64,000 nt of DNA from an uncultured bacterium. Lineage in GTDB: Bacteria > Electryoneota > AABM5-125-24 > Hatepunaeales > Hatepunaeaceae. The position numbers and the translations under genes are program-made. Under the pieces are notes generated by a model. It was not told the origin of the DNA. It saw only the letters and a list, made by a program, of their open reading frames with translations, and did not search any database. Where the stretch lies: positions 652 to 64,651 of the forward strand of contig CAZVKN010000005.1 of NCBI GenBank assembly GCA_964627035.1. The letters run 5' to 3'. This document shows, piece after piece, positions 12,016 through 50,285 of the stretch. Each line of letters begins with the position of its first letter. The stretch's first letter is position 1.

Positions 12016-12068
12016 GTTCAGAGTTCACGCTTCAGCGTGTAAGACAGCCTAAAGGCTGAACTCTGAAC
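12016..12068. repeat. Palindromic repeat family R (GTTCAGAGTTCA ... TGAACTCTGAAC terminal inverted repeats), copy R1
   Basis: gttcagagttCACGCttcaGCGTGtaagaCAGCCtaaaGGCTGaactctgaac, with 12-bp TIRs and two internal hairpins. Lies 27 nt 3' of the 12095..15673 stop. Confidence 0.8.
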
Positions 12069-12094
12069 CTGCTGGAGTCCGGAATGACAAGACT

Positions 12095-15000
12095 CTACTT
12101 TGTCAGTACAATCTTTCGGGTAATGGTCCTTGTATCCGATTTCAGACGAATAAGGTATATTCCCGATGTCAACGCTGACCCATCCCAGTGCTGCGTGGTG
12201 TGGCTGCCTGCTGTTAAACGGTGCTCAACAAGCGTTGTCACCAGCCGACCGTTTAGATCAAATAGTTCAAGCGATACATCTGTCTCATTCGGCACTTCAT
12301 AAGTGATATTAATCTGTGCGTTGAACGGGTTGGGGTATGTACTAATTATCCCCATTCTGCTTGGGAGCGGAGCTGATTTCATTTCCACAACCCACAAACC
12401 ATCTGAACGATAAATTCCCTCACCGACAACAGTTTCATAGTCTAACGGATAACTGCCGGATTCATCAACTAATTTGAATTCTAACAACTCATTCTCAAGA
12501 GCACCGTCAACATAAGATGTAGTCGGATCATCACCCCACACGGAAATACCACAGAATCCATCAGCAATTACTCCCGAACCGACCAATTCACTGTTTATAT
12601 AAGCTCCAATTTCACCTATCGCCTTTGAGCTTACCAAAACCAATATACTCATATTGTCACCTGTTGGCATATGAGTAGGTAACAATCGTGTGCAGGCATA
12701 AGGTGCCCGATATATATCTACCCGCTCTCCTTCCATGTCAGTTTCGTACACCAGATCGGCATCCTCCGACATCTTTAACATATAACCACGTCCCGGCGAC
12801 ATGTTGCCGAGATTGCTAAAATTGTATTCAGGAATGTAGAATCCTCCGGAACCGTCTTTGGCAATGATTAAACGATCATCCAAATCCGACAGTGCAACTG
12901 TTGCTTCTATTGATTGCCAGAGGTAGTAGCTGATAGTCTGCCAACCTTCACTAAGCTGAATTGTATCATCCGGGGCAACAGTCATTCCTTCAAGAGTTAA
13001 TTCACTGCGCTGAGCCACCTTTAGCTTGTACCCTTGAGCCACGTCCCATCCGGGGATATTGTTAAAATTTTCGTCAGGAATGTAAAAATGACCTTCTCCG
13101 TCTTTCATAAAAAGAAGCAATTCCCTTTCAACCAAATCGCGAGTTAAAACGGTTACATCCTCTTCTTCGGGCTGAAGACGTGCTGAGATCAGATTCCACC
13201 CAAGCGATAGAGGAATCCGCTGCCTGGATTGATGCGGTTCATCAGTAATTGTTAATGTAACCGGAATCCGGGTTTCCCCACCACGTGCGTTGTGGGTGAA
13301 AACAAGCTCGCCCGGATACTCGATTGGAATCAGGTCGTGAGCGTCCAGAACCAAATCAAATTCCTGCTCATCATCCGGTTCTATTGTCCCTTCCTCAGGT
13401 TCGATCTGTATCCAACTGCTGTTCCCCTGAATGTGCCAGATGTCCACCCTGTCTCCACCTTCCTGAGGTGGATTACCGACGGCTGTGATAAGTACATAAC
13501 TCAGAAAATCTAGCTGATTGGTAATAAAAGCACCCCCCGGATCTCCACCCGCTTCAGGTTCAAGATATGTAACGAAATCAATCTCACCGCTCTCGATATT
13601 AACCTTGTGAATCGCTTGAAGCTCCATCTCTCTGTCCTCATGGAAGAGATAGAGTGGTGAATCATCAGGATCATCCTCCCAATAAGCTAACCCGTAAATT
13701 CGTAATCCGTCCGGGTCTATCTCAAGGTCATCAAAAGGTTCTCCATCGCGTCTGTATGCAAAGATATTATTCACAGTACTCCCGATCCAAAGGCATTCCC
13801 GATCACTGTCGTAAGTCAGTACTGTTGTTATATTTAACGGACTTTCAAAACTGGTTTGAACCTCACCATCGAGTGAGATCCCGTATATAGTCTCGCCTAC
13901 AGCACCCCAAATCAGTTCACCGTCGTAAGCCATATCCCTGAAACCTCGCCTATCATCCTCAGGCTGCTCGAAGGTATCAACTGAATCACCGTTAAGATTG
14001 AACACATAGATCAAAGGATCGCCGTCATTTGCACCGGAAACATAGAGTAGATCATCAATAAAAAGCACACCCTGAATACGGTCGTCATCAACAGCTTCAC
14101 CGAAATTGTAAGACTCGCGCAATTCCCACGGATTAGCATCCAACTCACCGCGCAGTCCTGCATCTACCGACCATTCAAGCGGACCGTTACCGTCATTCCG
14201 AACAGAAAGATGACGATCTGTCACTTCTTCGGGATTAAGTATGGCTTCGATCTCATCCACCGAAGGGAAAAATTCGGGATGTGTCATGCTGAAGTTTATC
14301 TCAAGGGTGTCATCCTGTTCCATGTTGAAACCGTCACGCGTTATACTGTTATAGCCTGGCAGTGAGGCAGTTGCACTGAATTCACCCATCAATGCAAACT
14401 CAATCTGCCAATATCCTTCATCATCGGTTTCGGCTCGCTGCCCGAATGATGTACTGACCGTTGCCCCTTCCAACGGTTCATCATCCTCTGCGTTCACGAC
14501 AAACCCTTCCAACATCCCTCCCGGTTCAACTCCAAGTCGTACCAGCCATGAATCCCATCCTCCCGCTCCGAACGAACCTGACCAACCGTATAGCGCATAA
14601 CCCCAGTCATCTGTCATTATGCCTACTCTACAGACATCTGCTTGGTCACCTCCGTATGTCTCTGTCCAGAGTAACTCCCCATCTTCATCGGTTCTGAGTA
14701 CTAAAACATCAGCTCGTTCATCATTATAGGGCAAAGTGTTTCCAGCAAGTAGATACCCACCACTCTGAGTCTGCGTCACCGAAAAACATCTTTCGGCATC
14801 CTCACCTTCATAAACCCTCGTCCAAATCTCTTCTCCCTCGCTATTTACTTTCACCAAAATAGCATCTCTGTCATCATCTCCATCCGGAACGGTGATACCT
14901 GCAAGCAGAAAATCACCTTCATCGTTCTGGATAGCATGATAACAGTGATCATCATTTTCTCCACCGAATGTCTCGGATGAGAGTAATTCTCCCTCATCGT

Positions 15001-49206: not shown

Positions 49207-50175
49207 TCAGACGATGGTCATCCCGAGGCGGTCTGCGAGCAGCTTGATCAGTTCGTCCAGTCCCTGACCGGTTACGGATGAGATTGTACAGTCGAACAGG
49301 TCAGTGTCAATATGGTCATTGAGCAAATCGGATTTTGAGAGTACCACCATTCTCGGCAGTTTTGCCATCATCGGATTGAATTGAATTAACTCATTCAGCA
49401 GTTCCTCGATTGAGCGCTCGTAGTCATCTTCTGTTGATTCAATCATTAGAAGGAGCAGTCGTGTCCGCTCAATATGCCGTAAGAAACGGTGACCGAGTCC
49501 TCGCCCGGTATGTGCTCCTTCCGCCAAACCGGGGATATCAGCCATCACAATTCGCTGATACAGCCCGACCTGTATAACGCCTAACGCCGGATGCAGAGTG
49601 CTGAACGGATAATCACCGATAACGGGGTTTGCTTTAGTCAATGCAGCCAGCAAGGTAGATTTACCGACATTAGGTCTTCCGACCAGACCTACATCAGCAA
49701 TCAGCTTCAGCTCCAGACGAACACGGAATTCCTGTCCGGGGAACCCAGATTCTGCTCTGCGGGGTGATTGGTTGCGTGATGTGGCAAAGGCTTTGTTCCC
49801 TCGTCCGCCGCGTCCACCTTCGGCAGCGATGAACTGCTCCCCATCCTCTGCGAGATCAGCCATGATCGAGTTGTCTGCACAGTTCCAGATTACAGTTCCA
49901 ACCGGCAACTCGATGATAAGATTTTTTGCTGACCGCCCGCTCTTTCGCGATCCTTCACCGGGTTTACCGTTACCGGCTTTGTAAACACGGTTCAGGGTGA
50001 TGTCCTGCAGAGTTGCAAGCTGAGAGGTGGCACGGAAGATGACACTACCCCCATGACCACCTTTGCCTCCATCCGGTCCCCCTTTCGGTGCATACCGTTG
50101 ACGGTTGAAGCTGACCGCTCCATTGCCGCCTCTGCCTGCCCGGACAGTTATTTCCGCTTCGTCAATAAATTTCAT
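49207..50175 (-). CDS. obg: GTPase Obg/CgtA, short form lacking a C-terminal extension
   Basis: Gly-rich Obg fold at the N-terminus (GGNGAVSFNRQRYAPKGGPDGGKGGHGGSV). G1 GRPNVGKST, G3 DIPGL, G4 SKSD. 322 aa. Confidence 0.95.
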   Translation of the reverse strand: MKFIDEAEITVRAGRGGNGAVSFNRQRYAPKGGPDGGKGGHGGSVIFRATSQLATLQDITLNRVYKAGNGKPGEGSRKSGRSAKNLIIELPVGTVIWNCADNSIMADLAEDGEQFIAAEGGRGGRGNKAFATSRNQSPRRAESGFPGQEFRVRLELKLIADVGLVGRPNVGKSTLLAALTKANPVIGDYPFSTLHPALGVIQVGLYQRIVMADIPGLAEGAHTGRGLGHRFLRHIERTRLLLLMIESTEDDYERSIEELLNELIQFNPMMAKLPRMVVLSKSDLLNDHIDTDLFDCTISSVTGQGLDELIKLLADRLGMTIV

Positions 50176-50220
50176 GAGACATTGGACAAAATAACCGCTG
50201 TTAGGTCGCCGTACGATTGT

Positions 50221-50285
50221 GCTCAGAGTTCAGGCTTCAGTCTGTGCCGGTGTAAGGAAAACACGCTAAAGCGTGAACTCTGAAC
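50221..50285. repeat. Family R palindromic repeat, copy R5
   Basis: gctcagagttCAGGCttcaGTCTGtgccggtgtaaggaaaacaCGCtaaaGCGtgaactctgaac. The internal stem contains a G-T (G-U-compatible) pair. Lies between the 50378 gene stop and the obg start. Confidence 0.75.

Follow-up and report, generated by a model that had tools for sequence, protein, structure and literature searches.

Five REPIN-like inverted doublets in a 64-kb bacterial contig segment and the RAYT-type transposase found with their relatives

Closest described systems

Repetitive extragenic palindromic (REP) sequences, their inverted doublets (REPINs) and the REP-associated tyrosine transposases (RAYTs) are known from Pseudomonas and Enterobacteria (Nunvar 2010, PMC2817692; Bertels & Rainey 2011, PMC3116915; structure of E. 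coli TnpA-REP, PMC3479197). In these systems, a short tagged hairpin unit is dispersed as inverted doublets in intergenic regions, often just after genes, and forms families within a genome, while a Y1/HUH transposase gene is flanked by the same units and a subset of the RAYT loci occupies a conserved chromosomal position. The same features recur in the family of palindromes studied here, of which five copies (R1 to R5) lie in the 64-kb stretch of DNA that was analyzed (hereafter, the window), and whose accompanying transposase in related genomes is homologous to PDB entry 4ER8. Very probably, the five copies are non-autonomous REPIN-like inverted doublets that are mobilized by a RAYT. We are similarly confident that they are genuine copies of a REP/REPIN-type miniature mobile element, which would explain the five intergenic palindromes of the window, and that they are not regulators. 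The system works like a REPIN-RAYT system and largely qualifies as one; one defining feature, a GT[AG]G tag located 0-2 nt 5' of the hairpin, is lacking, and AGAG is found 2 nt from the stem. It further differs from the described systems by a stem that is no longer than 5 bp and closes a fixed TTYA loop, by two arms that usually have different stems, by its hosts (Acidobacteriota of the Blastocatellia, and Electryoneota) and by a transposase score under the cutoff (80) of the corresponding NCBIfam model.

On the basis of motifs, the protein is similar to subclass 2.8 of the TnpA-Y1 transposases (Quentin et al. 2018, PMC6006769), with which it has in common HuH with Y (NHYH), W[YH] (WH here), YIHxNP, a length of ~199 aa and a proline-containing N-terminus (HSPPH here). 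Subclass 2.8 is associated with long canonical REPs carrying a GT[AG]G tag and occurred only in Cyanobacteria within the sample of that study (PMC6006769); sister lineages of the present transposase likewise have GTAG 2 nt from the stem (GTTC-GTAG-TT-CCGCC). Compared by description, the arrangement also fits the TIRtrons and their TIRYTs (Di Nocera et al. 2013, PMC3733652), which are RAYT-like genes bracketed by inverted repeats without GTAG. Some TIRtron repeats are self-complementary, dimers of the repeats are found at other genomic positions as well, and an Acidobacteria group has been reported (PMC3733652). Those species, however, are Terriglobia-type Acidobacteria, and their terminal inverted repeat motif GGGGWSAS is unrelated to the tag described here. 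Finally, IS200/IS605 insertion sequences share with this system a Y1/HUH transposase, different subterminal hairpins at the left and the right end, the lack of a target-site duplication and a compact arm-gene-arm unit. In contrast to IS200/IS605, the protein is of the RAYT type (YIHxNP) and matches the NCBIfam model for REP-associated tyrosine transposases below its cutoff, the gene-less doublet multiplies rather than the gene-bearing unit, and there is no tnpB gene.

Inverted doublets and covariation within their arms

The 12-mer GTTYAGAGTTCA that bounds the palindromes has ten matches in the window when at most one mismatch is allowed, versus 0.67 expected, and none of 100 shuffles reaches ten. 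All of these matches pair up as exactly five inverted pairs, R1 to R5. When the window is searched with a covariance model trained on 101 family sequences, which include R1 to R5, exactly these five are retrieved at 64-72 bits, the next best match scoring 13.6 bits (E 0.38). All copies are built as doublets: two 24-nt arms of the form GTTYAGAGTTCA-NNN-TTYA-NNN-TG face each other in inverted orientation, and the spacer between them measures 5-17 nt in the window copies and 3-30 nt in the family as a whole. The inner part of the arm forms a 5-bp hairpin (CA-NNN / NNN-TG) with the conserved TTYA loop, and the outer part is a heptamer repeat, GTTCAGA-GTTCA, with the tag GTTY-AGAG-TT. Some relatives have three to nine heptamers. 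Beyond the 12-mer, the palindrome often extends as degenerate heptamers (complementarity of 40-54% at positions 1-6 versus 25% expected). At locus L203, the stop codon of a RAYT gene is directly adjoined by a tandem series of nine GTTCAGA heptamers, and several others precede the gene in the inverse orientation (864-930 and 181-232). Slippage can lengthen the tag region.

The family was sampled by scanning reference genomes, one per species, with the termini only, which yielded at least 118 loci. At least 96 canonical doublets are found in ~91 of the loci listed, from ~60 assemblies, almost all of which are metagenome-assembled genomes (MAGs) of Blastocatellia or Pyrinomonadaceae. The scan doublets and the five window copies together form the set of 101. 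Canonical doublets are also present at L018, L077 and L090, and covariance-model matches of 44-52 bits at L066 and L100, on contigs from MAGs labelled Clostridia, Heliobacteriaceae, 'bacterium' and Calditrichaeota; either these contigs were mis-binned, or the host range is wider than Blastocatellia and Electryoneota. No Rfam family matches the window at the gathering score, permissive E-values around R1 return nothing relevant and a search of 18 related loci gives one tRNA only. Likewise, a full-text literature search for the 12-mer and arm sequences retrieved unrelated primer matches only, and the literature search found no paper connecting RAYT or REPIN to Blastocatellia or Calditrichota. 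The family is undescribed in Rfam and in the literature searched; the kind of repeat is an ordinary bacterial one. Its description would extend REPIN-RAYT systems to Blastocatellia and Electryoneota.

In the window, R1 (12016-12068; 53 nt; 66-67 bits) consists of the left arm GTTCAGAGTTCA-CGC-TTCA-GCG-TG, the spacer taaga and the right arm CA-GCC-TAAA-GGC-TGAACTCTGAAC. R2 (15935-15988; 54 nt; ~70 bits) has CGC and GCC stems and the spacer ttgaaa, while R3 (28343-28403; 61 nt; 68-69 bits) has GGC and CGC-type stems and a spacer of 13 nt. ACC and CGC stems are separated by the spacer ttcttcttcccga in R4 (49080-49140; 61 nt; ~71 bits). The GGC and CGC stems of R5 (50221-50285; 65 nt; ~64 bits) surround a spacer of 17 nt, and its left end, GCTCAGAGTTCA, deviates from the 12-mer by one mismatch. 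None of the five is assigned to a strand. One hairpin of each copy reads CAGCC/GGCTG (R1, R2), CAGGC/GCCTG (R3), CAACC/GGTTG (R4) or CAGGC/GTCTG (R5). The other is CACGC/GCGTG in every copy except R3, where CACAC/GCGTG leaves an A.C mismatch on the + strand. The mismatch in the GGC arm of R5 is G.T on the + strand and A.C on the - strand. An initial annotation of this DNA had called the same five copies, and their lengths, termini and quoted internal stems are all present in the sequence; only R4, placed there at 49068-49128, had been given coordinates that are 12 nt too low. Its view of the copies as a dispersed palindrome resembling REPs or miniature inverted-repeat transposable elements (MITEs) is borne out by the family analysis.

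The compensatory stem substitutions first noticed between the five copies hold in a far larger set. Arms were chosen by their tag, loop and closing TG only, pairing not being required. Of the 192 arms obtained, 171 have Watson-Crick pairs at all three variable stem positions; when the partners are shuffled, the number is 46 on average and 65 at most. Uncompensated stem disruptions at a frequency similar to that of paired changes would have argued against selection on pairing; they amount to 21 of 192 arms. The middle stem pair is G-C (n = 96), C-G (n = 54), A-T (n = 23) or T-A (n = 7), and the covariation score of 0.259, compared to 0.089 in shuffles, is equalled by none of 500 shuffles. The stem variants form a discrete set with few intermediates, about 16 of them on a fixed tag and loop. 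Between the two arms, neither the variable loop base (Fisher p = 0.34) nor position 4 of the 12-mer (C-G 43, T.G 19, C.A 19, T-A 12) is associated, and the same stem is present in both arms in 16 of 101 doublets versus 25 expected; the arms usually differ in stem. The compensatory changes are real and are confined to each arm, not occurring between arms. RNAfold prefers one long hairpin for most copies. As a conserved structure, such a single long hairpin was rejected, cross-arm pairs at variable positions being unpaired in 75-76 of the 101 doublets.

A compensatory pattern may also arise without a functional cause when template switching during replication 'corrects' short quasi-palindromes. 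Both hairpin levels are indeed DNA palindromes, the flanks beyond the 12-mer tend to be complementary as given above, and the discreteness of the stem variants is in line with such a process. Yet, it leaves unexplained why the TTYA loop and the tag are fixed beside varying stems, why cross-arm mismatches persist in 75% of the doublets and why the hairpin-plus-tag unit lies beside a transposase gene in most loci. Template switching is therefore very improbable as the explanation of the pattern, although it may be the way in which mutation produces the compensated states.

Associated transposase, mobility and transcription

The doublets at 5189-5254 and 5951-6016 of locus L038 flank a - strand gene that was found by listing the open reading frames (ORFs) between paired elements. 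It matches Pfam Y1_Tnp, and its product carries the motifs LPNHYHVMV, WHNCFDR and NYIHNNPV. A 1-nt frameshift within a G-run (5478-5525) interrupts the reading frame, which is why a one-frame HUH...Y regular expression found nothing; the split gene is either a pseudogene or the result of an assembly error. Intact homologues of ~200 aa comprise 894 clusters at E <= 1e-5, of which some are labelled transposase (Pyrinomonadaceae/Blastocatellia) and some 'REP-associated tyrosine transposase'. Within this protein family, the motif PNHYH does not vary and NYxHxNxV hardly varies. A profile of 28 homologues matches PDB 4ER8 (E. coli TnpA-REP) with an E-value of 9.5e-7. Pfam Y1_Tnp (PF01797) is matched above its cutoff, and NCBIfam REP_Tyr_transpos (NF047646) at 64-75 bits (E 1e-18 to 1e-21), which is below the equivalog cutoff of 80.

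The link between enzyme and element also appears from the protein side. Among 80 metagenome loci picked by similarity to the transposase protein only, the arm of the window (<=3 mismatches in 24) occurs at 47, and at 38 on both sides within 400 nt. In many loci, the gene is enclosed exactly by one arm on each side, in inverted orientation: the left arm is followed by ~28 nt that include an AAGGAG ribosome-binding site and then by the ORF, with the right arm at or just past the stop codon. Upstream of the gene, 58 of 77 loci have a perfect N5-TTYA-N5' hairpin at a distance of <=150 nt; downstream, 59 of 79 have the inverse of this hairpin. The corresponding number for control windows is 4 of 989. 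The RAYT that the initial annotation had suggested looking for thus exists in related genomes, flanked by these elements, at L038, at the 47 loci and in Candidatus Electryonea clarkiae (see below). Sister transposase lineages come with variant units such as GTTC-GTAG-TT-CCGCC, GTTC-GGAG-TC-CCGCC, GTTCAGAGTG-CGCGA and others, with GTAG, GGAG or TGAG where the window family has AGAG. Tag and stem therefore co-vary with the enzyme, and AGAG holds the place of the canonical tag GTAG. At 10-12 soil loci (L153, L155, L160, L161, L170, L173, L176 and others), the RAYT gene lies between the same two neighbors, which, as read from the sequence, seem to be a PolX-like gene and one with a signal of the twin-arginine translocation (TAT) type. 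This shared syntenic position points to vertical inheritance in that lineage, as is typical of a single-copy RAYT.

The elements are essentially all intergenic and often follow shortly after a stop codon. The 79 classifiable elements are split over tandem, convergent and divergent intergenic regions as 55/11/13, matching the background of 273/72/85. Clustering of the ORFs around the elements revealed no recurrent neighbor gene family, and hence the element is not a cis-regulator of one gene family. Doublets of one genome have near-identical spacers and unrelated flanks, which indicates mobility and is predicted by transposition of the whole doublet. Solo arms are rare; the inverted doublet is the dispersed unit, with a density of five doublets in the 64-kb window. 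Inverted termini, small size, intergenic dispersal and mobility would equally suit a classical MITE, i.e., an internal-deletion derivative of an insertion sequence with a DDE transposase, for which the arms of 12-24 nt would serve as terminal inverted repeats. In its favor, one could add that the 2-nt flanks are identical slightly more often than expected (16 of 101 versus 6.3). However, target-site duplications do not exceed chance at 3 nt (1 versus 1.6 expected) or 4 nt (0 versus 0.4 expected), no DDE transposase recurs in the ORF clusters near the elements, and the gene nested between the arms encodes a Y1/HUH transposase. Moreover, covariation within an arm is not expected for repeats recognized as double-stranded DNA. 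Lacking a target-site duplication and a DDE gene, the DDE-type MITE is rejected, and we regard it as extremely unlikely.

A mechanism for the RAYT-mobilized doublets can be proposed by analogy with E. coli TnpA-REP and the TnpA of IS200/IS605. The transposase would act on single-stranded DNA and recognize the arm in its folded state, as a hairpin with a loop and a 5' tag, the tag and the loop presumably being read by sequence and the stem by shape. It would then cut and rejoin nearby, copying doublets into other intergenic sites. Stem bases would be expected to change only with pairing kept, while tag and loop stay fixed; the covariation within arms would arise because the stem is recognized by its pairing. 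The doublet looks like the gene-bearing unit minus its gene, with arms of different stems, and a resemblance of the spacer start to the start of the RAYT 5' untranslated region is suggestive only. With ~16 stem variants, a fixed tag and loop and a physically linked transposase, the family offers a large and clean natural data set on how a RAYT reads its target.

A number of observations speak against mobilization of the window copies by a RAYT. The tag is AGAG within the heptamer repeat GTTCAGA-GTTCA rather than the canonical GT[AG]G of the described systems. The RAYT profile detects no gene in the window (best E 0.39), and the ~7 kb beyond its right end hold neither a RAYT nor a new copy, so that the RAYT of the window genome is a prediction from the sequences of relatives. 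Nine contigs from the same population do not differ in the presence or absence of insertions. That the enzyme binds, cleaves and transposes the element is likewise presumed from the analogous enzymes, and compensatory changes in short palindromes can also come from replication template switching, without selection.

Alternatively, the hairpins may be kept by selection on RNA folding, the element acting as a 3'-UTR (untranslated region) stabilizer, a terminator or a small RNA. As the initial annotation had stated, most copies follow stop codons: R1 lies 26 nt past the stop of ORF 12095..15673(-), R2 11 nt past that of ORF 16000..18222(-), R4 66 nt past that of obg (49207..50175(-)) and R5 92 nt past that of a - strand gene. 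R3, in turn, occupies the divergent promoter region shared by a redoxin gene (27648..28202(-)) and an epimerase gene (28469..29491(+)). Besides these four of five window copies, the median distance to the upstream stop codon in the family (~18 nt), the stable RNA folds (z-scores of -4.9 to -7.3) and the detection of an arm hairpin with the T-rich spacer as a weak terminator-like site are all compatible with an RNA role.

The mismatches, the orientation and the 3' ends of the neighboring genes point the other way. The G-T pair of R5 had been taken as evidence for the RNA level, but the neighbors of R5 are on the - strand, where this pair is A.C. Family-wide, G.T and A.C mismatches are about equally frequent in the arms, and on the mRNA-sense strand of 55 elements between co-directional genes there are 3 G.U and 5 A.C. 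Although these numbers are small, nothing in the mismatch data favors RNA. Neither the orientation of the elements relative to transcription (26 versus 21) nor the polarity of the spacer relative to its direction is biased. The proposed terminator role is weak as well. The features of an intrinsic terminator (a GC-rich hairpin directly followed by a U-tract, at gene ends only) are not found: no T-run follows any of R1 to R5, and the divergent share of the family (13 of 79) equals the background. R5 lies between a separate, canonical intrinsic terminator (50326-50353(-), AACCGTGACCTC...GGGGTCACGGTTTTTT), past a gene for a cargo protein of the type IX secretion system (T9SS), and the obg start codon at 50175. 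In the syntenic relative L125 (Obg 70% identical), this terminator is kept between the T9SS-cargo gene and obg (7716-7748) while R5 is absent; R5 is therefore additional to the terminator and not its replacement. An RNA role also does not explain the conservation of tag and loop across phyla or the physical linkage to a transposase, and is not backed by an Rfam match. As the primary cause it is unlikely, and we assign it little probability; any effect of the doublets on neighboring mRNAs or their 3' ends would be a by-product. For genome scans, this is a reason for caution: textbook hairpin covariation need not mean a structured RNA, as recognition of single-stranded DNA by an HUH enzyme gives the same signal.

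Host lineages and other repeats of the window

The Obg protein of the window is closest to Candidatus Electryoneota and Calditrichota proteins (57-61% identity), and the window organism is therefore not an acidobacterium. Electryoneota, the phylum closest to it, belongs to the FCB (Fibrobacterota-Chlorobiota-Bacteroidota) group and is marine or aquatic. The window encodes many T9SS cargo proteins. Very large - strand genes at 3960-24138, 29687-33247 and 50378-53524 share a Por_Secre_tail (T9SS sorting) C-terminus of ~75 aa, and these Por_Secre_tail genes account for most of the long direct repeats of the window (families D2-D9). The transposase family described above also includes P0283 and P0296, two RAYTs with the annotation Candidatus Electryonea clarkiae. 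They are 54% identical to P0123, a soil metagenome protein whose closest named relatives are labelled Acidobacteriota. The contigs of the two RAYTs (L212 and L213) carry Por_Secre_tail genes, and on them three to five doublets, scoring 42-60 bits against the family model, flank the RAYT gene. These doublets, GT(A/T)TAGAGT(T/C)CAACCTTCAGGTTG-ttcttt...-CACACTGAAGTGTGAACTCT, are of the same subtype as R4.

It is conceivable, though rather doubtful, that two unrelated phyla, the soil Acidobacteriota (Blastocatellia) and Candidatus Electryoneota, share a single RAYT-REPIN system whose 24-nt arm is almost unchanged. Tag and loop are identical between the arms of both, while the transposases are only ~54% identical. 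If true, either the REPIN-RAYT pair was transferred horizontally between phyla or the recognition sequence has been conserved for very long, and the latter could hint at a dependence of the host on the elements. REPIN-RAYT pairs are usually described as vertically inherited. The RAYT of L203, which has CGC-stem arms, was considered as a member of the window lineage and set aside. The closest relatives of this RAYT lie near multi-domain Ser/Thr kinases, an extracytoplasmic function (ECF) sigma factor and PSCyt/DUF1501 genes, with no T9SS cargo genes; these neighborhoods presumably reflect Acidobacteria rather than an FCB organism.

The window also contains a second REP-like doublet (24571-24643) with the canonical GTAG tag, GGTAG-GGGCTTGA-TTTA-TCAAACCC ... 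GGGCGTGA-TAAA-TCACGCCC-CTACC, as well as a single arm of the same GTAG-tagged family (15853-15881). Its TTTA loop and its layout of tag plus hairpin are as in the main family, which suggests that the genome hosts more than one REP population. Other repeats are of different types. An 8-nt tandem repeat, (G/A)ATT(G/T)NGT (e.g., GATTGAGT), forms intergenic arrays at 9422-9469, 24479-24534, 27602-27649, 29474-29529 and 48968-49063, the largest of which ends 16 nt before R4; a similar motif, GATTGCGTGATTGAC, occurs between REP arms beside the RAYT gene in L203. The palindrome ATTCCCGC-n4-GCGGGAATGACG is present at 35312-35338, 44160-44186 and 53740-53766, in two cases inside 140-nt inverted repeats (44077-44217 and 53659-53801), and may be another miniature element. 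A further palindrome, TAGTCGTGGTTG-AGACAACCACGACTAC, is shared by 15703-15811 and 39234-39285, the first copy lying in a 109-nt inverted repeat just upstream of R2. Finally, an intergenic sequence of ~100 nt occurs in opposite orientations at 18760-18856 and 45362-45458 with ~83% identity and contains three direct CTTCGTCAC and an inverted GTGACGAAG. The second copy is located upstream of a LexA-like gene (44490-45107), and the repeat may represent a shared operator or promoter.

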